IMG/VR virus record: IMGVR_UViG_2548876867_000017
Coordinates: 1-35,219 of that record
Strand: one strand, 5' to 3'
Source of the DNA: a virus
Lineage: Duplodnaviria; Heunggongvirae; Uroviricota; Caudoviricetes
Length of the DNA stretch: 35,219 nucleotides
The translations under genes were made by a program, and so were the position numbers. The notes under the pieces were generated by a model that was given only the letters and a program-made list of their open reading frames with translations, ran no database searches and was not told the origin of the DNA. Below are positions 3,418-25,050 of this stretch, in pieces; position 1 is the stretch's first letter; each line of letters starts with the position of its first letter.

Positions 3418-4416
3418 TTAAAGAGCCTCTAAAGGGCTTAAATCGAGTTCTAAGTCTTCCGGTGTTAAATCAGCTAACGGTGCATTCATCCACTGCGATA
3501 AATCTCGTTCTATGTCTTCATCACTAATGTAGTTGTTCAGATTGATTGCGTTGGTATCATCAAAATACATTGGCTTAGATGGGTTGGTGTGGATGTATTC
3601 ATTGATGAATGATTTAACATCTTTCAGCTTGCTAATCGGTAGCGTTTCTGTGAATCCGCTATTCATTACCTTACGTGGGATTTTCTTGCCCTGAATATTC
3701 TTTTTAATCCCCATTTCTAAATCACCAGCTTTCCATCCAATGTTAAACAAATGTGAGCATTCAAAGGTGATTTTCTCGCTGGTGTGCTTCTGGTGTTCTC
3801 TTACCCGTTGCATCGGATCTTTGCGAGTGGTAATTCCATATTTGAAAAACTTCTCGCCAACACGAATTAGATAAAAGTGCATAGGGCGCTGTGCAAACTT
3901 GTTTCTGATAACCTGTTTTCTACCATTCTGAATTGATTTAAGTACACCCCTAACCAAAGGGCATGTTAACCCGCCTTGTCTGCGGTTATTGTGTAAATCA
4001 CCTTTCTTGTGAATCTTTCCGTGGCACTTACAACGAAGAATTAGTTTAGTGTCAACACCCTGATAAGGTTCAGCCAGACCTAACACATCCCACCCTATCG
4101 GCTTGTAGAACTTGCGAGCGTTTTCTAAGTGTTCTTCTTCGGTAAATCTAAACTTCTTCTTAGGCGGTGATACTCTATCTTTGCCAGTAAACTGACCAGT
4201 TAGAACATGACTAATACATGGCGTTTTAACCTTTCCGTTAACTTCTATGCAAACTTTGGTGTTCTGGAATGGTTTCTTTACAGGAAGCACAAAACCACTG
4301 TATAACCACCCATGCACTTGACAAACTTTAATGATTCTGGTTTCATATTCGACCGGAGGGGTCGCACGTTTGCTTTTTGCGGTAAATTCGATATCCTTTG
4401 CTAAAGTAGTATTCAT
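3418..4416 (-). CDS. putative homing endonuclease-like protein with GIY-YIG-related (T5orf172-like) motif
   Basis: Internal segment HFYLIRVGEKFFKYGITTRKDPMQRVREH resembles the T5orf172/GIY-YIG-like signature; Cys/His cluster CKCHGKIHKKGDLH; RBS GAGGA upstream. Confidence 0.45.
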   Translation of the reverse strand: MNTTLAKDIEFTAKSKRATPPVEYETRIIKVCQVHGWLYSGFVLPVKKPFQNTKVCIEVNGKVKTPCISHVLTGQFTGKDRVSPPKKKFRFTEEEHLENARKFYKPIGWDVLGLAEPYQGVDTKLILRCKCHGKIHKKGDLHNNRRQGGLTCPLVRGVLKSIQNGRKQVIRNKFAQRPMHFYLIRVGEKFFKYGITTRKDPMQRVREHQKHTSEKITFECSHLFNIGWKAGDLEMGIKKNIQGKKIPRKVMNSGFTETLPISKLKDVKSFINEYIHTNPSKPMYFDDTNAINLNNYISDEDIERDLSQWMNAPLADLTPEDLELDLSPLEAL

Positions 4417-4462
4417 AGTAGTGAATCCTCAATAAAATAATATTCACTACTATTTATAAGAA

Positions 4463-4834
4463 TTAATTATTGTAGTTTTGGAAACCAGTAAGATCACAAA
4501 ATGAATCAGTGTCATGTGCTGGGGAACGGTGTTCTGCCTCATCCGAGAAAATGTTGGCAACCGGAGATTCCACTTTAACTTCCGGTGCTTCTTCAACATC
4601 TGACTTGACTTCTTCGACCACTGGTTCAACTGCTGGAGATTCTTCTTTTGCTTCTTCAATGACGATCTCAGGTTCTTTCATTGCTTCAACCAGAGACGGA
4701 TCAACTTCGTCGAATACCACTTTATCATCTGCGGTGTATTTGTCTATAATGAAAAAATGGTCAGAAATATAGCTAACGTCGCCAGCATATTCTAACAAAA
4801 AAGCGCCCACCAGAGGCGCTTTAATTTTATCCAT
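4463..4834 (-). CDS. hypothetical acidic protein (start uncertain)
   Basis: ORF-track TTG start at 4864 overlaps the upstream gene; ATG at 4834 overlaps the upstream stop (ATGGATAA), consistent with translational coupling; C-terminal half very acidic. Confidence 0.35.
   Translation of the reverse strand: MDKIKAPLVGAFLLEYAGDVSYISDHFFIIDKYTADDKVVFDEVDPSLVEAMKEPEIVIEEAKEESPAVEPVVEEVKSDVEEAPEVKVESPVANIFSDEAEHRSPAHDTDSFCDLTGFQNYNN
4797..4820 (-). terminator. candidate intrinsic terminator or attenuator after peptidase gene
   Basis: AGCGCC-loop-GGCGCT hairpin followed on minus strand by a T-run, just downstream of the 4827 stop; lies inside the next ORF, so may attenuate rather than terminate. 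Confidence 0.35.
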
Positions 4835-5180
4835 TCCACCGTGATTTTTTTGATCTGGAATCAATATGCGTAAAGGTTTTATATTTTCCTAAGCCGTATT
4901 GAGTAGGATATTTCCCATCAAGATAAGCATGAACAATATCAGGCGAGACACCCTTGATAACAATGTCAGCCGCGCGGCCTCGAACGTGATAGCTATTGGC
5001 TGCCCCGCCTACATTCTTGTTATGAGTCGGGCAACGGTTGCCACTGTTAATAATCACTGGTTTACCGAAGTGCTCTCGTACATCCTCAAGAATCACCAGT
5101 AATTCAGCGTCGATTGTATCATAATCACATTTTCCGCATTTACATTTAAATTCCTTGCGAGAAAAATGCTTACTTAACAT
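4827..5180 (-). CDS. peptidase M15-family cell-wall hydrolase (candidate endolysin)
   Basis: Motifs YHVRGRAADI and THID typical of zinc D-Ala-D-Ala carboxypeptidase-like M15 peptidases; RBS AAGGGGG. Confidence 0.6.
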   Translation of the reverse strand: MLSKHFSRKEFKCKCGKCDYDTIDAELLVILEDVREHFGKPVIINSGNRCPTHNKNVGGAANSYHVRGRAADIVIKGVSPDIVHAYLDGKYPTQYGLGKYKTFTHIDSRSKKSRWNG

Positions 5181-6729: not shown

Positions 6730-6782
6730 TACGCCCCCGATATTTTTATATAGTTTAATGGCAAAATTATTTAGATAAAAAT

Positions 6783-6816
6783 AATCCCGCCTAACTCAAA
6801 AGAATTAAGCGGGATT
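6783..6816 (-). terminator. intrinsic terminator after tail tip gene
   Basis: AATCCCGC..GCGGGATT 8 bp stem followed on minus strand by ATTTTTAT, directly after the 6835 stop. Confidence 0.5.
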
Positions 6817-6834
6817 AATTATTAGAATTAAATT

Positions 6835-9800
6835 TTAAGAAACAGAAATACCAGTCGCGGCTTTCTTAGTTACCATTACCGTTAGATCGCTGATATATGC
6901 ACTTGGGTTATAGTTGTTAACGCCCTTACAGTAAACTTCAAAAGTCATTGTTACTGCCCCGTGTCCGGCTGGCATGTCAATAACTCCACTGTACATACAG
7001 CCAGAAGTTGCAGTGCGATCATATAGAACACCACCATTTTTCTTAACGATTAGTCGGCAAGTATCCCAATGATCGCTACTTTCGCCACGACGAACAGACC
7101 CGTTATGATGAATCGCTGGAATCACTATTTGGCGATCGAATGGATGATCATCTTCGACCCTTACAGTGATTGCACCATCAGGCCAGTTTGGTTGGCGATG
7201 CGGGAAACTCCTACCAACCACTTTCACGAAGTCACCACGCACCTGATTAGCATCAAGCATACCCAAAATGCGGCAACTTGAATTAATCGTTACGTTGTTC
7301 ATTTCGCCGGAATCAGCCACCAAATGACCACGAATATTAGCGTGTCTAAAATGGCAAGTGCCATCTTTGCCAATATACCATCCATCGTTACCATTCCAGT
7401 TATAAGACTGGATATAGTTACCAATTTTAGCATTATCGATAGAGCCATCAATAATATGACCTGTTCCGATCTGTGCGTGCTGGATGTGAGCACCGTTAAT
7501 CTGGGCTGTGCCGATCTTAGCCGTAGTGATACTAGCATCACTAATCTGGGCGGTTCCGATCGCTGCATTACGAATCATTGCATTATCGAGATAAACCTTG
7601 TTATCTTCGATACCAAACGGACAAACTTCTGATCCGTCTTGTGGAGCCACCGCGATTTTATCAGCCGTAAAGATGATTCTCGTCGGTTGTGCTGGATCGT
7701 TGGTTGCGCTCATATGAATACCAGCCACGCGACCATCTGCATTAACTGCCAGATTATATTTGCTGTTAATGGTTCCCTTCAAAGCATCGATTTTTACATC
7801 TGCTTCCTGATTCACACCAGCAATCTTGCCATCCATTTCTACCCGAACTTGATCAATCTTACTTGCGCTTGCTGCCTCACTGGTAGCAATTGCTTGTTTC
7901 AGGGTAGTAGCGGATGCGCTAACTTCTTTGGTGATATCGCCTTTCAGTTCAGCTTTAACCTGATCAATCTTAGTTGCGCTGGCTTGCTCACTGGTAGCAA
8001 TCAGACTCTTGAGAGTATCGGCTGAGGCTTGGACCGTCTGCCCTGTCTCGGTAGTAATCTGTTTATGCATTGCATCAATCTTAGCATCGGCATTAGCGCC
8101 AGCTTGAGCAATAGCATCCGCGATGGTTTCATCTAAGCGATCTTGTAAACCGATCAGGTCTTCCAGTGCTTCTTTGTCCTGATCGTCCCAACTAATGGTA
8201 GATTTCATTTGCATGAAATACGGTTCGGACCAAACAGCATCATCCATACCGAAAATATCGTAGTGAGCACCACGGATATAATAATCACCGTCAGCAATAT
8301 CAAAGGAAGTATGGCTAACACTATTCGTGCTTACTGCCCTTGCATCTGAGAAAGTGTTATCGGTTGCATACTGGATGATTGACCCTGCATAGTCATGTTC
8401 TACGTCATCCGCCCAGCTAACAAACGCAGTATTAAAGCCACCACGCGCACTAAAACCTTTCATTGGCTTATGCTGTGGGTTAATAGCCACTAAACGCGCT
8501 GGGGCGCTTACAGAGTTGTTATAACCCTTAGCGGATACTTCTACCGTCAATTCACGGGAAAGGCCGTTAAACTGGTTCATATCGAGCGTATAGGTCCATG
8601 ATTCAGGATCGCGGGTACGGTACTGAATAGACTTACCAGCCTTGTTAGTTACCTTGATAATGTAGGCTTCAAACAGGTCACTAAACTTGTTAGCTTCATC
8701 GTTGATCATCACATCTAATTGTTGCTGATTGTCCCATTCAATAATCAGATCGTTGCCTTCGAAAGTACCAGGTGAACTACCCTGATTTTTGATTCGAATA
8801 ACCGGAGTCGGCAATTCATAGGTAACAGTAGGATTCTGGTTAACCAGTTCCACCCATTCGGAACGAGCAATAATACCGAAAGCACAAACGCGGTAATCGT
8901 AGGAGCGATCTTTTGCCAGTGCATTGATATTGAAAATTTGCTGTGAAGTCTGTCCCAGCTTAATCCAGTTAGGTGATCCACTCACACGATAATCAATCTG
9001 GAAACCGTAGCGGTTGAAATCTTCCGGTGCATCCCATGTCAAAGTTACGTTTTTACCGTGGATTGTCTCACCAGTTGCCTTAATTCTGAAATTAGTCGGT
9101 TTCTGTACTGTCATTGAATCCGGTAAACCAGTAGGTCTATTGTCTGGAGTCGCCGCATAGTTCAGGTCAGTATAAACCTGAGAATTATATTCTGTGGCGG
9201 TGATCGTCATCATCCCAGCAATACCAGAATCAATAGAACGATCAATTGCAGTAATACGCCAAAGTGAATTATTCAGTTTTAATTCATCATAGGTTACGCT
9301 AATAACATCCCAAACTTCGGCAGTGAATGCGTCAGTAGTCATAAAGCTGATAACCTGAGTGATACGAGATTTATTTCGTTCAATACTCGCGAGTTTATCA
9401 ATCTGGGCTTTAGACTTAACAAAACGATATTCAATATCTTTAGCGATAATTCGACCATCTTGACGAATAGTAGCATCGTTTTCAGCATCAGCCGGATAAC
9501 GTAGCATTTGCTCTGAATAGTCGATTGATGGTTCTTGATACATCGCGTTAATGGTATTGAAATAACCGTTAGTGCCACCTGTTTTCAGTGATACCTTACC
9601 CATCATGATATTGTCTTCATTGAAGGTATGCTTAACAATATCAGGAGCATCCAGTTTCAGAGTAATACGTCCAAAGGATTCGAACATTACCCCGCCGAAA
9701 GTCTGCATAAGACTGGTCAAGTTCTCTTTAAAGCTGGCGTTCGGATCACATGCACCGTTTGAATGTAGGTCCATCTGTCGTACTTGTTTACGTACTTTCA

Positions 9801-10581
9801 GGAATGAATCAACGTTAATGTTTTCAATTGGTACGGATAAGCCATATTTTTCATTTGTTAGGTAGTGGAAAATCTGATCCACGCCGTTAGTGCTAGCCTC
9901 AATAGCATTGGTTTCGAGGTTACGGATTTTTAAGCCCATAACATCTACTGCCACTTGGCTATTTGGCTGGAGAATATCAACACCAGCAGCCAAAGATTTA
10001 TCGTCACGACGTAACACAATACACATGGTTGCAATGCCGTTACCCTGATACCGATCATCCCAATCAGCGCCCAAATGATGTTTAGCTAAATCCAATGCGG
10101 TGTTAGGATTTTTACCAGTGCGAAACTCGACTTCTAAAACTTTGCGATACTCGTCTTTAATGTTTCCTTTATCGAGAATGCCATCACGAATTGTCATATT
10201 CTGGCTAATGAGAACGTTTTTATTATCGATGTGCAGTGCTTTAAAGTGATCGATCTCACCTTCGGCAATAGCAAAAATTTGTACCAGTTTGTTATTTTCA
10301 CGCTGTGAAATTGCTTTGTAAACGCAGATTGCACCCGTGCGGGTAGTACCGAAAAGAACGGGTAATACTGTCTTAGGATCGTTTGATGTTCCTAGTGTCA
10401 CCGCATTATCTGGGCTTTGTACTTTCGGTGTTTTTGGTGCGCCTACAGTGGAAGCGATCAAGGTCATTGCACCAGCAGCCATACCGATAGCGACTGCGGT
10501 CATAACAGAAAATGTTGCGGCTGCCGCCATCCCCGCCGAAGCACCAGCGATCACCGCGCCTACCAATACTTCAAATCCCAT
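6835..10581 (-). CDS. central tail fiber / host specificity protein (lambda gpJ-like) with gpI-like N-terminal segment
   Basis: 1248 aa; C-terminus (DDHPFDRQIVIPAI, VIDMPAGHGAVTMTFEV, ends ATGISVS) matches the lambda J receptor-binding domain as I recall it; N-terminal Gly/Ala hydrophobic stretch plus LPVLFG resembles gpI C-terminus; TAATG overlap with upstream gene. Confidence 0.8.
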   Translation of the reverse strand: MGFEVLVGAVIAGASAGMAAAATFSVMTAVAIGMAAGAMTLIASTVGAPKTPKVQSPDNAVTLGTSNDPKTVLPVLFGTTRTGAICVYKAISQRENNKLVQIFAIAEGEIDHFKALHIDNKNVLISQNMTIRDGILDKGNIKDEYRKVLEVEFRTGKNPNTALDLAKHHLGADWDDRYQGNGIATMCIVLRRDDKSLAAGVDILQPNSQVAVDVMGLKIRNLETNAIEASTNGVDQIFHYLTNEKYGLSVPIENINVDSFLKVRKQVRQMDLHSNGACDPNASFKENLTSLMQTFGGVMFESFGRITLKLDAPDIVKHTFNEDNIMMGKVSLKTGGTNGYFNTINAMYQEPSIDYSEQMLRYPADAENDATIRQDGRIIAKDIEYRFVKSKAQIDKLASIERNKSRITQVISFMTTDAFTAEVWDVISVTYDELKLNNSLWRITAIDRSIDSGIAGMMTITATEYNSQVYTDLNYAATPDNRPTGLPDSMTVQKPTNFRIKATGETIHGKNVTLTWDAPEDFNRYGFQIDYRVSGSPNWIKLGQTSQQIFNINALAKDRSYDYRVCAFGIIARSEWVELVNQNPTVTYELPTPVIRIKNQGSSPGTFEGNDLIIEWDNQQQLDVMINDEANKFSDLFEAYIIKVTNKAGKSIQYRTRDPESWTYTLDMNQFNGLSRELTVEVSAKGYNNSVSAPARLVAINPQHKPMKGFSARGGFNTAFVSWADDVEHDYAGSIIQYATDNTFSDARAVSTNSVSHTSFDIADGDYYIRGAHYDIFGMDDAVWSEPYFMQMKSTISWDDQDKEALEDLIGLQDRLDETIADAIAQAGANADAKIDAMHKQITTETGQTVQASADTLKSLIATSEQASATKIDQVKAELKGDITKEVSASATTLKQAIATSEAASASKIDQVRVEMDGKIAGVNQEADVKIDALKGTINSKYNLAVNADGRVAGIHMSATNDPAQPTRIIFTADKIAVAPQDGSEVCPFGIEDNKVYLDNAMIRNAAIGTAQISDASITTAKIGTAQINGAHIQHAQIGTGHIIDGSIDNAKIGNYIQSYNWNGNDGWYIGKDGTCHFRHANIRGHLVADSGEMNNVTINSSCRILGMLDANQVRGDFVKVVGRSFPHRQPNWPDGAITVRVEDDHPFDRQIVIPAIHHNGSVRRGESSDHWDTCRLIVKKNGGVLYDRTATSGCMYSGVIDMPAGHGAVTMTFEVYCKGVNNYNPSAYISDLTVMVTKKAATGISVS

Positions 10582-11000
10582 TATTCACCCCCGAATCTAT
10601 AAACTTGTTCATAGTCAATGTCTGAAACAGGAATGGTCATCCAGATACCATCTTCTTCAACGAGGCCATAACCGGAATAATGAGGAACTACGGAATAATA
10701 TTTGCGGTTTCCTAATTTGTGGGCTGTGACCAGTAAGTCGCCGTCCTGTAAATCATCAGTGACTAATTTGAAATGTTTCTTAATTGGTTGAAGGATATTT
10801 GAATACCCGCTTAATTCTTTGCAGATTTTCAAGCCTTCTTCTTTAGTTGAATATTTTTTATAAAGAGAATTATATAGGTCAGTACCAGCGAGAATATCGA
10901 TGATCTTACATGCAATTAGATTGCAATCATTCTCGCCTTGAACGAACTCCTGACCTATTAAAGAATTGATGTAATCGGTGATAAGCCTAGTTTTTAGCAT
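10581..11000 (-). CDS. tail assembly protein, NlpC/P60-like (gpK-like)
   Basis: Start moved to ATG 11000 with RBS GGAGGT; Cys motif GENDCNLIACKI and downstream His resemble an NlpC/P60 fold; position just upstream of the J-like gene. Confidence 0.45.
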   Translation of the reverse strand: MLKTRLITDYINSLIGQEFVQGENDCNLIACKIIDILAGTDLYNSLYKKYSTKEEGLKICKELSGYSNILQPIKKHFKLVTDDLQDGDLLVTAHKLGNRKYYSVVPHYSGYGLVEEDGIWMTIPVSDIDYEQVYRFGGE

Positions 11001-11046
11001 GTTGAATACCTCCATGCTGTTATTTACTAGGCTTAGGGAGAAGGGA

Positions 11047-11817
11047 TTATTTCTTGAAGTCTTCGTACATTCTACGAAGGTTGTATTTTGGATGGCCTAA
11101 GCTAACCATGATTTGGCTCAATTTAACTGCGCCAGGTTTGCCGTTTTCAATCCACACACGACGGATTTCATCGTAATGCTGCCAACAGCCTTGACCTTTA
11201 GCAATGCGTATAGAATGTGTATATTTCTTGGTAGAGCTTTCTGGTCGCTTACGCCCTAGATGTGCTTTTCTAATCTTTTCGCGTGTTTCTTCTGATACAG
11301 GTTTACCATAACGGGGGTTATTTTCTCCACGAGAAGCAGCGGATAATTTAGCTAATATTTCTGGGTTGGTTATTTTCTTCCCTTTCATTGCACTAGGTTT
11401 ACCATAGCGATGGTTCTTTTCACCCATTCGAGATGCCGACATTTTAGCTCTAGATTCCGGTGTATGTTTTCTTCCGTAAAAAGGATGATTTTCACCACCA
11501 TCAAAACCACCGACACCACCAGGAGCAATATTAAGACATACACCACGCCCCCATTTTTCGCGTGCTGCCTCCACTAACAGAATTTCACATTCAAACGCTT
11601 CCTCGGCAGTATCAAACAATTTTGAGCGAACAACTTCAAATTCATATATCGGGGTTTCTGATTCTTTATTTTTACGCTTCATCATTTTAATAACTTTACC
11701 CGACCCCACATATCCATCATCTAGATTTGTAGTTGTTCTTTTTCCGACGTAATGATAGATTTTACCAGAGCGATTAGATTTAATAGTGGTGTGATAAACG
11801 TAATGGAATTTTTGCAT
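11047..11817 (-). CDS. GIY-YIG homing endonuclease with NUMOD3-type repeats
   Basis: N-terminal YVYH..GKIYHYVGK GIY-YIG-like motif; repeated NHPFYGRKHTPESRAKMS and NPRYGKPVSEETREKIRKAH modules typical of Seg/I-TevI-type endonucleases. Confidence 0.75.
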   Translation of the reverse strand: MQKFHYVYHTTIKSNRSGKIYHYVGKRTTTNLDDGYVGSGKVIKMMKRKNKESETPIYEFEVVRSKLFDTAEEAFECEILLVEAAREKWGRGVCLNIAPGGVGGFDGGENHPFYGRKHTPESRAKMSASRMGEKNHRYGKPSAMKGKKITNPEILAKLSAASRGENNPRYGKPVSEETREKIRKAHLGRKRPESSTKKYTHSIRIAKGQGCWQHYDEIRRVWIENGKPGAVKLSQIMVSLGHPKYNLRRMYEDFKK

Positions 11818-11891
11818 ATAGGAAAGCCCTCAAAAATAAAGAATCTCTCCTATATTTATTGAGGGCTTTAGTGTGCCATTTAGTTTCAGTA

Positions 11892-12545
11892 TTACTTTTT
11901 AGACGAGTGCCAGCGGCTTTCGCTATTCCACTTCCCGGCACGAGAGAAGAATAGATCGTTCTCGTTTCCGGCATAAGATCGGTGGATACCATCGGAGGCA
12001 TGACTACGAGCGTTTTTATCTAGAACTTCCCAGATACTATTAAGCTGAAATTCTGATTCGTTTTTACACTCATCATCTTCATGTTCGATGTTAATCCCGA
12101 TGGAATCGACTACCCCACGGAAAACAGGGTAAGTGGTTTCAACCTTGCCCGTGTTAGGGTTCAGGAACACCATTTCGATTTTCACATCTGATTTATCGAA
12201 TTGCTTATTACGAATCAGGGTAATGTATTCTTCGCGAACGTTAGAAACGGTTACGTTAATCCCGTTGTTGTTGATCTCCTTCTCTTCGGTATTCGATGAG
12301 ATTTGAAGAAAATCACCCGTTGCAAGATACGTAAATCCGTTATAGTCCAAATCGAAATACCCATCTGTAAGCCGTAGAACGTCCCCTGACGCGGTTACTA
12401 CTTCGATAATGTGAAACATCGATCCAGTGGAGAAAAGCTGCGGTAGAGTCAATCTAGACACATTCTGACCTGTCTGGTCGTTGTATACCTCGATGAAGTC
12501 CAGATTAGTGCATAGTTTGCTGAATGATTCCTGAATAGTTGCCAT
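11892..12545 (-). CDS. minor tail protein
   Basis: 217 aa; start overlaps upstream stop (TAATG); located between tape measure and tip genes. Confidence 0.5.
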   Translation of the reverse strand: MATIQESFSKLCTNLDFIEVYNDQTGQNVSRLTLPQLFSTGSMFHIIEVVTASGDVLRLTDGYFDLDYNGFTYLATGDFLQISSNTEEKEINNNGINVTVSNVREEYITLIRNKQFDKSDVKIEMVFLNPNTGKVETTYPVFRGVVDSIGINIEHEDDECKNESEFQLNSIWEVLDKNARSHASDGIHRSYAGNENDLFFSRAGKWNSESRWHSSKK

Positions 12546-13105
12546 TATACATTCTCCACTAATTCAAATTTCATCTTGCCGATCTGGGCGATCTTCCAAT
12601 CGATGTTTTCAGTTTTGAGAACAAATTCACCTTCTACGTTCTGATACTTGATCACCTCACCCGCCAGGACGTTCTGACGCAAGTTAGGGAAGAGTTTCAT
12701 TTCGCCACCTGATTTCACGTCTTCGGTGATCGTGTAGATTTTCTTGTGGTTCTCAAACTGGATGATAGTTCCCGCTTTCAGTGTTCCGGTGAAGTTGGAG
12801 AGTCTTACCTTACGCCCACCGCGAGCAGTACCAGCAGCAGCCGTTACCATCTGGCGTACATCACCTGTATATTTTGAAAAGTAAGACAGTGGCACATTGA
12901 AAGGACGACCAAAAAGGTGACGTGCTACAAATTCTTTTACTTCGTTAATATCCTGAGCCATGAAATTAGCTGTAAATTCTGCTTCATAAAAATGGATGCC
13001 AGTAAAGCGACGCTGGAACTTACCGGAGATAGATTGCGCCTTGAAGAAAGGCTGTTTTGATTTAAGAGTAAAATCTGTGATTTTAATATTTTTGGATTTG
13101 AACAT
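12545..13105 (-). CDS. minor tail protein (distal tail / gpM-like position)
   Basis: 186 aa immediately downstream of tape measure gene; RBS GGGGG embedded in upstream hairpin. Confidence 0.5.
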   Translation of the reverse strand: MFKSKNIKITDFTLKSKQPFFKAQSISGKFQRRFTGIHFYEAEFTANFMAQDINEVKEFVARHLFGRPFNVPLSYFSKYTGDVRQMVTAAAGTARGGRKVRLSNFTGTLKAGTIIQFENHKKIYTITEDVKSGGEMKLFPNLRQNVLAGEVIKYQNVEGEFVLKTENIDWKIAQIGKMKFELVENV

Positions 13106-13110
13106 AGAAA

Positions 13111-13150
13111 AGCCCCCATAGTTTTATGATTATTTATCACTATGGGGGCT
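13111..13150 (-). promoter_or_regulatory. GC-rich hairpin sequestering the RBS of the downstream tail gene
   Basis: 10 bp stem AGCCCCCATA / TATGGGGGCT with about 20 nt loop between tape measure stop (13156) and next start (13105); the 3-prime arm contains the GGGGG Shine-Dalgarno. Confidence 0.45.
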
Positions 13151-13155
13151 TTTAA

Positions 13156-15585
13156 TTACATCTTACGACGCTGAACGTCTTCTATCGCCTGAGCAACAAA
13201 CTTAGCGTGACGTTTGATAGCATCCATGACCATCTTGTCTGAGCTATTAACGTTGCCGTTAATGTTCAAAGGCGCATTAACTTCAATCGGCTGAGAGTTA
13301 CCACCGCCTGATTTTTGAGCCGCAAGGAAGTCTTTCAAATCACCGTTAGTACGCTGATCAACTACTCGTTCACCCTTATCAAGCAACCATGTACCCTCAC
13401 GAGGGATATTATCGATACCATCATGAGCCATACCGCTAACGTTAGTAGACTTGATGTTTGCGATGTTCCCCATGTTCTGAGAAACAGCCAATGCAGCAGC
13501 AGCGATTTTTTGACCTGTGGTTACGTTGGTCGGATCGTTCCATGCATCGGTAGCAGCCGTCCACATGTTCACCGTCGCTTGTCCGATAGAGAATGCTTTA
13601 TGAGCATTGAAAGCCATCTGCATAGCTTTAGTGTTTTCCTGCCCGAAGAGAGTCATTGCAGCAGCAAAACCGCCGTACATATCATCAGCTATTGACTGGC
13701 GAGCATCAGCATATTTCTTCTCAATTGCAGCCATTCGTTTTTGATGGTTTTCATTGAGTTTTTCTAATTCTTCCATCCGTTTAGCCGGATCGGTGATCCC
13801 ATCAATCTTGAGTTTATCGGTCTTATAATCTTGTTCCGCTTCCGATTTCTCTTTATCGATTGCATTAAATTTAGCAAACGGATTATTTGAGTCTTGATAA
13901 TCATAACCACTAGTTAATTGATTGGTTTTATAACCATCCATTCCCTGTAAAGAATTTTCAATCTGAGAATAGTTTTGCTCGGTATCGTTCACACGACGCA
14001 TATATTCTTCGTAGGAGATAGCTTTACCATCAAGTAACCGTTTATGGCTTTCTAGCTCGTTGTCCCTGATTTGTTGCAATTGTGTTAAAGCATTCAGAGC
14101 ATCAATCGGATCAGCACCCAACATCATTTTATAAACGTTTTCAGTATTCTGATCGATTAGCGCCTGGCGTTTCGCGGCTGCGTCTTCCTGAGAGATTAAG
14201 CCCAGAGCTAACGCGTCGTTCACATCTTTTAAGCTGTTTTGCAACTGGCTATTTTGAGAAGTGATAGACGCTGCAACTTGCCCTTGCAATTTAACATCAA
14301 GTGCATTCAGTCGCTTGATTGCATCCTCGCGTGCTTTCTGTGCTTTTTCTGCGGCTTCCTTAGCCTTTTTAGCTGCCTCTTCCGCTTTCTTTTTGGCTTC
14401 TTCCTCGGCTTTCTTCTCGTTGCCAGACTTACCCAATGAAGCTGGTCGAGTTGGTGTAGTCGGGATAGTCAAATCACGGTTAGGATCTGCCTTGCGGGTT
14501 AGATGTTCCCCGTTATCGACAACAATCAGAGAGCCATTTTTCTTATAAGAATCACCAAAACGTTTCTTAAATCCTTCAACATCAAAGCCAGCAGTACGAG
14601 GATCAACACCAGCACCACGGATCGCGGCCTTTTCCCAATCTGCCAGATTATTCCAACGCTTTTCTTTATTGTACTTGTCAATAATCTTTTGAGCGTCTTT
14701 ATGGTTGGCGTTAAGAATACCGCCAGTTGCGGTCTTGCCTTCTTTATTCAGTCGGTCTAATGCCCTGAATAGAGAACTCTTTTCCCAATCAATATTAAAC
14801 CATTCAAATAACCAGTTTAAGCTATCAACCAAAGGACCAGTAATGGTCATGCCGACACCTTTCAGGTTATTTTCCAGCTTATTGATATTTTGAGAAAATT
14901 TATCATATTTTTTAGCGTTTTCTTCGGTGACGTTAACAGATTGATTCTGAATAGCGATCATCGCCTCTTGAGCACTATTATATTTCTCAAGCTGGCTGGT
15001 CATATGGCTTGAATCACTGGCTAAAGATTCCATCATGAACTTGATTTCAGCCATTGATTTTCCGGCTTTCTTCATGTCATAGAACACTTGGATCGCCGCT
15101 TTCATACCACCTTGCGGATCGGTCATGAAGTGAGCATAGTTTTCTAACTTAAGGCCAACCGATTCTAAATCATCGGCAATACCACCACCGTTAGCCCATG
15201 CATCACCCATCTTGTCTAAGGTGTCTTTGTTGATATCACCAAATTTTTCAACTGTTAAGCCAGTGCCAGAAAATTCCTTTTCCAGTCTTTGAAGGGATTC
15301 AATCGATAGTCCGGTCGCCTTAGATACTTCTGAATACTGTTTAACGTATTCCGCGCCAGCTTTAGCGGCTGCAAAAACTGCGGTCGCAACTAAGCCGATA
15401 CCACCAGCAGCCAAACCAGCAGAGCCAGCGATCCCACGAAGAGATCCAGTCAAACCAGACAAACCACCGCCAAAATCGATATTACTTGCCTTTTCAGACA
15501 AACTATCTAGAAGGTTAGCGGCTTCATTGGTACTTCTCCTTAGACCTTTATTATCCCCTTCTATTGTTACTATATGTTTTGTCAT
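13156..15585 (-). CDS. tail tape measure protein
   Basis: 809 aa, long alpha-helical/coiled-coil regions, Lys/Glu/Ala-rich segment, Gly-rich N-terminal segment; follows G/T chaperone pair; RBS AAGGGG. Confidence 0.85.
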   Translation of the reverse strand: MTKHIVTIEGDNKGLRRSTNEAANLLDSLSEKASNIDFGGGLSGLTGSLRGIAGSAGLAAGGIGLVATAVFAAAKAGAEYVKQYSEVSKATGLSIESLQRLEKEFSGTGLTVEKFGDINKDTLDKMGDAWANGGGIADDLESVGLKLENYAHFMTDPQGGMKAAIQVFYDMKKAGKSMAEIKFMMESLASDSSHMTSQLEKYNSAQEAMIAIQNQSVNVTEENAKKYDKFSQNINKLENNLKGVGMTITGPLVDSLNWLFEWFNIDWEKSSLFRALDRLNKEGKTATGGILNANHKDAQKIIDKYNKEKRWNNLADWEKAAIRGAGVDPRTAGFDVEGFKKRFGDSYKKNGSLIVVDNGEHLTRKADPNRDLTIPTTPTRPASLGKSGNEKKAEEEAKKKAEEAAKKAKEAAEKAQKAREDAIKRLNALDVKLQGQVAASITSQNSQLQNSLKDVNDALALGLISQEDAAAKRQALIDQNTENVYKMMLGADPIDALNALTQLQQIRDNELESHKRLLDGKAISYEEYMRRVNDTEQNYSQIENSLQGMDGYKTNQLTSGYDYQDSNNPFAKFNAIDKEKSEAEQDYKTDKLKIDGITDPAKRMEELEKLNENHQKRMAAIEKKYADARQSIADDMYGGFAAAMTLFGQENTKAMQMAFNAHKAFSIGQATVNMWTAATDAWNDPTNVTTGQKIAAAALAVSQNMGNIANIKSTNVSGMAHDGIDNIPREGTWLLDKGERVVDQRTNGDLKDFLAAQKSGGGNSQPIEVNAPLNINGNVNSSDKMVMDAIKRHAKFVAQAIEDVQRRKM

Positions 15586-16330: not shown

Positions 16331-16350
16331 AGCCACCCCGAAGGATGGCT
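16331..16350 (-). terminator. intrinsic terminator after tail tube gene
   Basis: Hairpin with UUCG loop on the minus-strand transcript followed by a run of six U, 8 nt after the 16359 stop. Confidence 0.6.
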
Positions 16351-22882: not shown

Positions 22883-22908
22883 AAAAAAGCCCCACCGTTA
22901 GGCAGGGC
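22883..22908 (-). terminator. intrinsic terminator after major capsid gene
   Basis: 8 bp stem with tetraloop followed on the minus-strand transcript by six U. Confidence 0.6.
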
Positions 22909-23043
22909 TAATTATTATTCTTTAGTTTTACGCTGTTTTTTAGCTGTGGCTTTCGCCTTAACCGTCTGGGATTCTTCTTCCGGTTCAGGAATCAGATTTT
23001 CTTCCCCCAAATCGGGGGAAGGTTCAGATGGTTCTACAGGAGT

Positions 23044-25050
23044 TCATTCAGCGGAGATGTGAAGAACTTTCAGCGCTTCCGGCTGGGTTACAACGTAATC
23101 CAGATCTACCCAGATACGCGGAACGATAGCAGACTGTGCGCGGTAGGTAGTGTCATCAATGTCAAGTTCCAGACCACCCCATTCACCGATGGTAATAGCG
23201 TCGAACGATCCCAGAACGATGTGGTCTACCGGAATAACACCAGAAGTAACTACGTCGTAACCAGCCAGTTTACCGTTTTCGATGATATAACCGGAAACGC
23301 CGTTATCTTTCAGGGTAGATTCCAGTTCAGCAGCAGTTGCACCGCTCATCGCAAACTTGATCGCCTGAGCAGGAACGCCAGCGTCCGTGAGCTTTGCAAT
23401 CTCCTTGAGGAAGTCTTTATAAGAGAAAGCAGCTTTCTTCTCTACGCGACCAGCATCTACCAGTTGTTTAATCACACCAGCCGGACCACGAGCATTTTCT
23501 TTGTCGGACAGAATCAGTTGTTCCAGTTTGATGCGAACAGCCTGGTTAATGTGATCAGTGATCAGGGTAGCGATGCCGGGTACGGTCTTGAGGCTAGCTC
23601 TGCTGATCGGATTCCCACCAGCAAACGTCTTAGGAGCCATTTTCACGTTTGCAAATTCAGCTTTACCTTCCGGCGCAGCACCGTTTTCATCAACGAAGCC
23701 GAAAGATTCAACGCTGGAAGCGGTCATTTTAGGAATAGCGGTCGGTGAAGTCAGACCAGACAGGACTTTCACACCAAGACGACCCAGAACGGATTCCGGC
23801 AACAGCATCGCTACATAGGAATCATTCAGCAGTTTTTCGTCGGTTACAGCGGTCAGAGTAGCTTTGGTGTTACCATCAGCAGCAGCACGCATAGCAGCAG
23901 TCGGAACGAATACAGAGCCACCGCGAGCAGCACGACCACGCTGCATAGTTGCAGTAGCAGCCATTGCAGAAAACTCGGCTTCGTGAGCACCCAGAGCTTC
24001 ACCATCTACCAGAGAGCGAATTACGTTGTTCAGGTCAAAAGTTTTTTCCATTTTAGAGTCCTTAATTTGTTGTTCGTTATTACGTTGAGCATTGGTAATG
24101 TTATTTAGTGCCTTAGTGCGGAATGCTTCCGGCGTCATATCTTTAATTGCCAATGCGCGTTCTAATTCTTCGTCGTTAATATTTAACTCACGAGCGATTG
24201 CTCGGATTTCTTCTTCGTCTTCTTCGGAACGTTCAGCCACTTCTTCGATTTTTTCTTCTTCAACCGGAGCAGCTTCACGTTCTTCTTTTACTTCTTCTGT
24301 TTCCCGAACAGTTGAACTATCATCATCAACACTTTCAGGATGTTCAGCGTCTTTTCCGTCTTCGAGATTTTCATCTTCTTTATTCTCTTCAACTTGGCGC
24401 TCTTGAGTTTCTTCTACTTCCGATTCTTTATTTTCTTCTACCGGAGTTTCTTCAACCTGAGCGGATTCTTGTTCTTCTTTGATTTCTTCAATTTGTTCTT
24501 TAGTCATATCGCGTTTAGCCTCCAAATTAACTGTGATAGTATTTAGAGAGCGATTTAAACCGACCGAATCGTCCGCCGGGACCGTAACAAAACTTAATTC
24601 GAAAGGAACAAACTTAGTAACAATCAATTGTCCTTTGGCATAATCGATGTGATATTCTTTAATGTCATAGCCGACAGAAATTTTTTCCATCGTACCTTCA
24701 ATGACCTTATTACGAATATCATTAGCCAAAGTGCCATGCTTAGAGAATCTAACGGTCGCACGGCCTACTTTATCCGCATCGATTCGAGCGTTACAAACGA
24801 CACCTAAATGATTATCGAAATTATGATTAAACAGCAACGGAGCGTTATTATTCAGACGAGACAGATCAACCGCTTCCGGTGTATGTATCAGAATTTCATC
24901 TAATACCACCATTTCTTGATTTTGCTCATCCCAGAATTGGCGCTGATAAGGCTGTTCACTGGAGAAAGCAATTTCAAATTCGTATTGATCGTTATGCCCT
25001 TCGTTAATAACTCCACCGTAACCGTTAAGTTCGCGGCGAAATTTAAGCAT
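23044..25050 (-). CDS. fused prohead protease - scaffold-like linker - major capsid protein (HK97 fold)
   Basis: 668 aa; N-terminus has HK97-type protease motifs (APLLFNHNFDNHLGVV, ISVGYDI, ELSFVTVPADDSV); acidic Glu-rich middle; C-terminal about 350 aa with capsid-like pattern and strong codon bias; RBS AAAGGTGA. Confidence 0.8.
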   Translation of the reverse strand: MLKFRRELNGYGGVINEGHNDQYEFEIAFSSEQPYQRQFWDEQNQEMVVLDEILIHTPEAVDLSRLNNNAPLLFNHNFDNHLGVVCNARIDADKVGRATVRFSKHGTLANDIRNKVIEGTMEKISVGYDIKEYHIDYAKGQLIVTKFVPFELSFVTVPADDSVGLNRSLNTITVNLEAKRDMTKEQIEEIKEEQESAQVEETPVEENKESEVEETQERQVEENKEDENLEDGKDAEHPESVDDDSSTVRETEEVKEEREAAPVEEEKIEEVAERSEEDEEEIRAIARELNINDEELERALAIKDMTPEAFRTKALNNITNAQRNNEQQIKDSKMEKTFDLNNVIRSLVDGEALGAHEAEFSAMAATATMQRGRAARGGSVFVPTAAMRAAADGNTKATLTAVTDEKLLNDSYVAMLLPESVLGRLGVKVLSGLTSPTAIPKMTASSVESFGFVDENGAAPEGKAEFANVKMAPKTFAGGNPISRASLKTVPGIATLITDHINQAVRIKLEQLILSDKENARGPAGVIKQLVDAGRVEKKAAFSYKDFLKEIAKLTDAGVPAQAIKFAMSGATAAELESTLKDNGVSGYIIENGKLAGYDVVTSGVIPVDHIVLGSFDAITIGEWGGLELDIDDTTYRAQSAIVPRIWVDLDYVVTQPEALKVLHISAE

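Follow-up and report, generated by a model that had tools for sequence, protein, structure and literature searches.

We propose that the 845 base pairs (bp) at positions 11047-11891, on the minus strand of the IMG/VR virus record IMGVR_UViG_2548876867_000017 (35,219 nucleotides (nt), analysed as a whole and called the window below), are most probably a promoter-less, free-standing homing-endonuclease cassette of the T4 Seg type (GIY-YIG plus NUMOD3) lodged at the end of a phage tail hub gene. The cassette is polymorphic, present or absent at a single exact site, one endonuclease allele occurs nearly unchanged in many different flank backgrounds, and the endonuclease gene is under purifying selection. 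The sequence of the protein supports its placement in the Seg branch of the GIY-YIG homing endonucleases, with activity as a prediction. The cassette adds a clear, if unremarkable, case to a known type of mobile gene and reveals no new mechanism.

Insertion site

The insert, its two host genes and its junctions are as follows.

11047-11891, minus strand: the insert (mobile cassette), 845 bp, made up of 5' leader, hairpin and endonuclease open reading frame (ORF)
11047-11817, minus strand: endonuclease ORF, 256 amino acids (aa), ATG start, stop codon at 11047-11049
11892-12545, minus strand: tail hub protein, Phage_phiJL001_Gp84_N / DUF2163, 217 aa, the upstream host gene
10581-11015, minus strand: DUF6950 tail protein, the downstream host gene, with its likely start at the ATG at 11000 and GGAGG before it
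11892-11915, minus strand: left junction, the last hub codons, synonymously changed (TGGCACTCGTCTAAAAAGTAA versus TGGCATTCATCGAAGAAATAA in the empty allele)
11001-11046, minus strand: right junction, the unchanged hub-DUF6950 intergenic leader (TCCCTTCTCCCTAAGCC...GGAGG), nearly invariant in all alleles

A search of IMG/VR with the hub protein yielded 36 loci, 29 of which are close relatives that keep both flanks. In 25 of these 29 the hub stop is followed directly by the TCCCTTCTCCCTAAGCC leader and the DUF6950 start, and in the other four 845 or 848 extra bases lie at exactly this point, so that the gap between the hub stop and TCCCTTCTCCC is either 0 or 845-848 bp. Among 5,426 complete E. 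coli genomes the tail module is present in 56, with the insert in six and an empty site in about 50; ETEC1703 is one of the carriers, and ETEC4085 and PE15 have prophages with the empty site. The first-pass annotation of this DNA had read a free-standing gene interrupting an otherwise contiguous tail series and had called for alignment to relatives in search of an endonuclease-free allele; these empty alleles bear out the interruption and supply what was sought.

The empty site is precisely defined as TGGCATTCATCGAAGAAATAA running directly into TCCCTTCTCCCTAAGCC, or, with its codons, TGG CAT TCA TCG AAG AAA TAA and then TCCCTTCTCCC. The occupied site reads TGG CAC TCG TCT AAA AAG TAA, then the 845 bp, which end in GAC TTC AAG AAA TAA, and then TCCCTTCTCCC. 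The end of the hub protein is unchanged in carriers by way of synonymous codons, and the last endonuclease codons, AAG AAA TAA (K K stop), duplicate the hub end of the empty alleles. A 9-nt quasi-direct repeat brackets the insert (left AAAAAGTAA, right AAGAAATAA), which leaves the placing of its boundaries free over as much as about 9 nt. The occupied allele can be derived from the TCTAAGAAATAA variant of the empty site by an insertion between TCTAA and GAAATAA with no other change. Transposon-type terminal inverted repeats and a target-site duplication were considered and neither is present, the 9-nt quasi-direct repeat being the only repeat at the junctions. The insert is intergenic, the neighbouring ORFs are intact and no Rfam or group I intron match was found in the insert at E<=1; the gene is free-standing, as first annotated, and resides in neither an intron nor an intein. 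The right junction probably forms the half of the homing site that lies downstream.

Of the 25 empty sites, 24 have one and the same clean, scarless junction, and the more distant relatives (DCP80, L034/L035) also have no endonuclease. The remaining empty site (L028, 6640-6665) has the junction TCTAAAAAGTAATAATCCC, in which a carrier-type recoded hub end is followed by three extra nt. This is the expected product of excision between TAATA and AAATA and is possibly the footprint of an endonuclease loss.

Family and domains of the endonuclease

The protein divides into three regions.

11503-11817, minus strand: Seg-type GIY-YIG catalytic domain, residues 1-105 (invariant residues, T4 Seg motif, AlphaFold, hhalign)
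11218-11502, minus strand: three NUMOD3 DNA-binding repeats, residues 106-200 (Pfam), a mosaic stretch that varies more among alleles than the rest of the protein
11047-11217, minus strand: helical C-terminal domain, residues 201-256, which matches the C-terminus of a homing-endonuclease profile and occurs in two variant types among alleles

The NUMOD3 model (Pfam PF07460) matches the protein in three stretches with E 1.1e-21 and 76.9 bits against a gathering cut-off of 20.4, in agreement with the first-pass annotation, which had also called the protein GIY-YIG. As the Pfam GIY-YIG model (PF01541) does not match, even at E<=10, the latter assignment needed other evidence, which upheld it. PHROG 314, 'homing endonuclease', matches the protein with E 5e-32, and the PADLOC homing-endonuclease (HEase) models give separate matches to the N-domain (3.8e-12), to the NUMOD3 region and to the C-terminal 45 residues. 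The catalytic domain is 35-39% identical to T4 SegC, SegE and SegB (blastp, E 4e-15 to 2e-11, computed against a database of nine T4 sequences) and has the NLDDGYVGSG motif in common with T4 SegA-E. A profile of the Seg-like N-domains aligns to the canonical GIY-YIG profile in hhalign with a probability of 97.4% and E 1e-11, and PF01541 is itself present in distant homologues of the endonuclease.

The hallmark of the GIY-YIG superfamily is an N-terminal 'GIY' and a 'YIG' 10-11 residues apart on two beta strands. Their counterparts here are YVY (residues 6-8) and YHYVG (residues 21-25), which the AlphaFold2 model puts on strands E4-14 and E20-29; the N-domain adopts the alpha/beta GIY-YIG fold in this model, with a predicted local distance difference test score of 84-93 over residues 1-90. 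Y8, Y23, G25, E78 and N96 are invariant, the first three of them in 27 homologues, and E78 and N96 align in hhalign with the profile columns of the catalytic Glu (I-TevI E75) and Asn (N90). In the Seg-like set residue 27 is R or H, but spaced differently from the canonical Arg. The NUMOD3 region is matched by the DNA-binding domain of I-TevI (1I3J) in a profile search with E 0.012, and among NCBIfam models only a sub-threshold 'group I intron endonuclease' match was obtained, over the same region; phmmer of the protein against PDB sequences gave only noise. The RefSeq name is 'NUMOD3 domain-containing DNA-binding protein'.

Allelic diversity, selection and spread

Homologues with 90, 79, 77, 75, 63 and 53% aa identity, from E. 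coli, Salmonella and read-archive assemblies, all lie between hub and DUF6950 at the same nucleotide position, and a 35% homologue is located elsewhere, in a different phage context. The ratio of non-synonymous to synonymous divergence (dN/dS) between endonuclease alleles is 0.04-0.34 overall. The strongest constraint of the three regions falls on the catalytic domain, with dN 0.05 at dS about 1.6 (ratio about 0.03). The window and L015 have almost the same catalytic domain (dS 0.015) and a saturated NUMOD3 region. Such mosaic alleles recur in L015/L016, L058, L062, L046, L049 and L060, where catalytic dS can be 0.015-0.13 in alleles whose NUMOD3 repeats and C-terminal domain have reached saturation or belong to a second sequence type (WKYYDEF...), which indicates that DNA-binding modules have been exchanged between alleles at one site.

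Nine loci have a protein identical to that of the window. They show 11.5 synonymous differences per pair in hub, 3.4 in DUF6950 and 0.22 in the endonuclease gene, a contrast that is the only unbiased one in this set as the loci were retrieved by protein identity. They fall into seven left and six right flank haplotypes and share a tract without differences from about -78 to +28, and the nearest flank neighbours of carrier loci are often empty-site loci; in each flank haplotype group most alleles are empty. Position -7 is the sole one within -900 to +700 that is perfectly associated with the insert, and the association weakens with distance, on the hub side alone, until about -52. A distant immunity substitution was sought in the same interval and no further insert-associated site was found there.

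Endonuclease genes split by single-base deletions were seen in L063 (2001-2773), L064 (505-1277) and L065 (2001-2767), the deletion lying at nt 266 in the first two and, in the numbering of the L058 allele, at about nt 463 in the third. These may be decaying copies, although the assemblies are from short reads and sequencing error is possible. Read together, the coexistence of empty sites, selected intact genes and apparently degenerate copies would be the expected picture of a homing-endonuclease cycle of invasion, decay and loss.

The leader hairpin

Between the hub stop and the endonuclease start the cassette has a leader of 74 nt with the following elements.

11823-11869, minus strand: conserved 47-nt hairpin with an outer stem of 11 perfect bp and an imperfect inner helix (folding, allele comparison)
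11827-11831, minus strand: Shine-Dalgarno (SD)-like GAGGG in the hairpin's 3' arm, 9 nt ahead of the ATG (read from the sequence)
11868-11879, minus strand: putative mini-ORF ATG GCA CAC TAA, with a stop codon that overlaps the hairpin at its 5' base

The perfect 11-nt arms, at 11823-11833 and 11859-11869 (AAAGCCCTCAA / TTGAGGGCTTT), lie 25 nt apart and form part of a near-continuous 20-bp stem-loop of -23.5 kcal/mol (z -4.0 to -4.6), a stability reached by none of 200 shuffled sequences. The structure is kept in every allele at -23.5 to -26 kcal/mol (z -3.9 to -5.9), with compensatory changes at one stem pair, which is G-C, A-U or C-G in three sequence types, and an otherwise invariant outer stem. 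The fold of the sense strand is 3-9 kcal/mol better than that of the antisense strand and uses G-U pairs, which indicates a role at the RNA level on the tail transcript. The first-pass annotation had placed an inverted repeat with a loop of about 23 nt at 11824-11866, flanking the insert. The repeat is real and was located to within 2-3 nt, but it does not stand on both sides: it is wholly inside the insert, starting 22 nt past the hub stop at the left junction and ending 5 nt before the ATG. Of the two functions then suggested for it, the marking of an insertion boundary does not fit a conserved internal leader hairpin, and the limiting of expression was the better suggestion. The 'own SD' credited to the gene was also correctly seen, with the refinement that GAGGG, the sole SD-like sequence at a usable distance from the ATG, is buried in the 3' arm, a location and spacing conserved in all alleles.

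We consider it about an even chance that the leader hairpin masks the SD and keeps translation of the endonuclease low, in the manner described for I-TevI, segB and mobE. Because the hairpin begins 22 nt after the hub stop, it would be too far away for terminating ribosomes to open. The alternative that the hairpin serves mainly as an intrinsic terminator or attenuator, or as a stabiliser of an mRNA 3' end, is one that we hold possible but clearly less probable. It draws on the A-tract, G+C stem and U-rich tail of the element (UUUUCUUCU in Salmonella-type alleles, UUUCCUAU in the window), on the terminator-like hairpins that follow the capsid, tail-tube, tape-measure and J genes of the same late operon, and on the terminator-like hairpin found directly after the hub gene in the distant empty-site relative L034. 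A consensus terminator scan nevertheless did not flag the hairpin in the window, a strong terminator would starve DUF6950, the tail-tip protein and later genes, and a pure terminator would not require the conserved SD and ATG spacing in the 3' arm. Termination and masking are not mutually exclusive, and a hairpin that masks the SD may also act as a partial terminator.

Other signals were sought in the leader. No sigma-70-like promoter is predicted upstream of the endonuclease. The motif RTGGCA (AA[A/G]TGGCA) is invariant in the cassette leaders of all alleles, but its TGGCA was rejected both as a -35 element, the distance to any -10-like hexamer being variable, and as a sigma-54 promoter, the spacing being off by one base. 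A T4-style late promoter inside the hairpin was likewise dismissed, as there is no TATAAATA, and a pseudo-target or operator, suggested by the resemblance of GAAACTAAATGGCA to hub positions -31 to -17, was not significant (shuffle p 0.56, 0.17 and 0.013). The putative mini-ORF always ends within the hairpin and has three codons in the window, seven in L015/L060 and 15 in L046-L049; its start is GTG instead of ATG in L046-L048, which is still a start codon. At the other end of the cassette a 10-bp stem (CTTCGTA...TACGAAG, 11058-11082) within the last 30 nt of the endonuclease ORF was scored by the scan as a plus-strand terminator; it is antisense to the only gene there, occurs at chance frequency and is probably due to chance.

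The late tail operon and its hairpins

On the minus strand the order of genes is tape measure, distal tail protein (Dit), hub, endonuclease ORF, DUF6950 and tail-tip protein, and the further members are these.

13156-15585, minus strand: tape measure
12545-13105, minus strand: distal tail protein (Dit)
6835-10581, minus strand: tail-tip protein, 1248 aa

Hairpins are found at two further gene starts of this series. At the Dit start (13108-13153, minus strand) a 15-bp perfect inverted repeat (AAAAGCCCCCATAGT / ACTATGGGGGCTTTT, -26.3 kcal/mol, z -5.6) has the tape-measure stop 2 nt before its stem, the Dit ATG 2 nt after it and a G-run in its 3' arm. With the stop this close, terminating ribosomes should open the Dit hairpin, and the design, which is that of the endonuclease leader, suggests structure-dependent translational coupling in the operon. 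The gap from stop to stem, 22 nt at the endonuclease against 2 nt at Dit, is the reason for which we favour repression at the endonuclease. At the DUF6950 start (10982-11035, minus strand) a 10-bp perfect inverted repeat (TAAGCCTAGT / ACTAGGCTTA, -20.1 kcal/mol, z -4.2) begins 11 nt after the insertion point, encloses GGAGG and both candidate ATGs, and is present in empty and occupied alleles alike; it may belong to the homing site or serve as a coupling device. U-tailed, terminator-like hairpins on the minus strand were located after the capsid, tail-tube and tail-tip genes (22888-22909, 16331-16350 and 6782-6817), and hairpins in what appears to be a single late operon suggest attenuation or read-through control of late transcription.

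The endonuclease stop codon (AAGAAATAA) is positioned exactly where the hub stop sits in empty alleles. It is conceivable, though we consider it unlikely, that the cassette is wired into a hairpin-based relay of translational coupling, in which ribosomes finishing the endonuclease would open the DUF6950 hairpin and ribosomes on the mini-ORF would gate the endonuclease. Were this the case, an essential tail protein would rely for its expression on the translation of a selfish gene, and such an addiction-like arrangement would explain the long retention of the endonuclease at the site.

The host phage

The window is a temperate E. coli prophage with a serine integrase and a siphovirus-type tail. 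Its G+C content is about 41%, and its other genes include a large serine recombinase, a gpA-type terminase, a protease-capsid fusion and a gp34-like fibre; a local G+C peak of 0.51 at 23001-24000, against about 0.41 elsewhere, lies within the 668-aa protease-capsid fusion ORF. A copy of the same element in an E. coli chromosome adjoins the csg/ycdY region. The cargo beside the serine integrase differs between copies: in the window (3418-4864) it consists of a 332-aa and a 133-aa ORF without a Pfam match, the former with only a very weak match to PADLOC PD-Lambda-1, and in E. coli ETEC1703 (L066, 10978-14366) of a 391-aa 'GIY-YIG nuclease family protein' and a DEAD/DEAH helicase.

A megablast of window positions 10000-13200 against GenBank phages gave no match. 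The sole GenBank phage with a related hub gene by tblastn is Escherichia phage DCP80 (L001, PQ671644.1, 9477-26121), in which the hub has 43.5% aa identity and the tape-measure/Dit/hub/DUF6950/tip module contains no endonuclease. The DCP80 record is 141 kilobases long and filed under Straboviridae, an unusual placement for a siphovirus-type tail module, and its DUF6950 homologue lacks an annotation.

Discussion

The model that most reasonably fits these observations is as follows. During lytic growth the late tail transcript would read through the cassette with little enzyme being made. An endonuclease-free relative in the same cell, either a co-resident prophage or a co-infecting phage, would be cut at or near the junction of the hub stop and the DUF6950 leader, and recombinational repair from the carrier genome would copy in the cassette along with some tens of bp of flanking sequence. 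The carrier allele would be protected, as the site is split by the insertion and the last hub codons are recoded.

Several points weigh against this model. Homing and cleavage activity are inferred throughout. In addition to the lack of a match to the Pfam GIY-YIG model, a profile of the Seg-like N-domains alone found no match among PDB sequences, and I-TevI, although ranked first by Foldseek against the PDB, was not significant (E 0.27). The catalytic Arg/His of I-TevI cannot be aligned in the endonuclease, the R-x3-H segment falling in hhalign on a gap or on the NLDDGY segment; the T4 Seg enzymes have the same layout, and most of them are reportedly active. The right junction reproduces the empty site from -9 onward, and since the Salmonella carrier allele L060 keeps AAGAAATAA at its hub end the -7 change is not a universal immunity mark. 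The junction may also not be the cleavage site, as the free-standing endonucleases of T4 frequently cleave DNA far from where they are inserted (PMC2988022). The occurrence of one allele in many flank backgrounds could also come from ordinary homologous recombination between mosaic prophages, and the nine loci on which it is based share the retrieval bias given above. Finally, essential genes of the same operon, Dit and DUF6950, also start inside strong hairpins, so that a hairpin need not mean repression.

Beyond the alternative for the hairpin weighed above, a different nature of the protein itself has to be considered, namely that it is a DNA-binding accessory or regulatory protein, or a domesticated non-homing endonuclease, whose patchy distribution arises from ordinary prophage recombination in the manner of a 'moron'. 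The RefSeq label, the silent Pfam model and the canonical Arg that finds no aligned counterpart would all suit such a protein, the prophage flanks are visibly mosaic, and I-TevI, which doubles as an autorepressor (PMC2988022), offers a precedent for a DNA-binding role. We nonetheless judge this explanation very unlikely, given that the N-domain is the most constrained region, that the Seg catalytic motifs and fold are kept, and that all alleles down to 53% identity occupy one nucleotide position, which a homing site predicts and free recombination of cargo does not. Morons typically bring their own promoter and a downstream terminator, unlike this gene, which has no predicted promoter and a hairpin upstream. 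That the endonuclease is ancestral at the site and was never mobile, all empty alleles being deletions, is barely credible: alleles diverged to synonymous saturation at one site, the apparent deletion scar of L028 and the frameshifted copies as decay in progress are in its favour, but 24 of 25 empty sites share the clean junction, a pure 845-bp insertion converts that junction to the carrier allele, every flank haplotype group has an empty majority, distant relatives have no such gene, and an endonuclease allele 30-50 times less diverse at synonymous sites than its flanks requires recent horizontal movement.

A mobile Seg-type cassette thus provides the most rational explanation for the polymorphism. 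Homing endonucleases are best studied in the virulent T-even phages, and the present cassette offers a clean natural case in a temperate prophage family of E. coli and Salmonella, with a defined empty site, apparently decayed copies, sequenced host strains of either state and several diverged intact alleles in which the DNA-binding modules are swapped and the catalytic domain is nearly identical. Homing, target choice and control by the hairpin are thereby directly testable in E. coli. The assignment also corrects an uninformative database name, and the cassette can serve as a marker for recombination between resident prophages.

Comparison with known systems

A literature search for this cassette in prophages found no description of it. 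The Seg endonucleases of T4 are free-standing GIY-YIG homing endonucleases that perform 'intronless homing', and the likeness to SegA-SegG extends to the (K/T)H(S/T)T-NLDDGY(M/V)GSG variant of the GIY-YIG motif in the N-domain, to a free-standing position between conserved genes in the orientation of these neighbours, and to variable presence among otherwise collinear relatives. As with T4 segC, segF and segG, the cassette is promoter-less (PMC2988022). It differs in its host, a temperate siphovirus-type E. coli/Salmonella prophage with a serine integrase as opposed to a virulent T-even phage, in its location within a late tail operon, and in the protein, a predicted nuclease that has three NUMOD3 repeats and a distinct C-terminal domain and 256 aa versus 140-224 aa.

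With I-TevI, encoded in the T4 td intron, the protein shares a modular build of catalytic domain, NUMOD3-type linker and C-terminal DNA-binding domain, although the gene is not intron-borne, sequence identity is only about 13-17% and the Arg27/His31 region of I-TevI has no alignable counterpart. The control region invites the closest comparison. An RNA hairpin masks the I-TevI ribosome-binding site, and such hairpins are likewise found upstream of I-TevII, I-TevIII, T4 segB and Aeh1 mobE (PMC2988022). The cassette resembles all of these in having a stable hairpin directly 5' of the endonuclease start with the SD in its 3' arm. In the T4 cases a late promoter inside the structure gives unmasked transcripts, whereas none, as also in the comparison with I-TevI, is evident inside the hairpin here, and the operon differs further in carrying similar hairpins at the essential Dit and DUF6950 genes. 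The hairpin may therefore be a device borrowed from the host phage and not one specific to the endonuclease.

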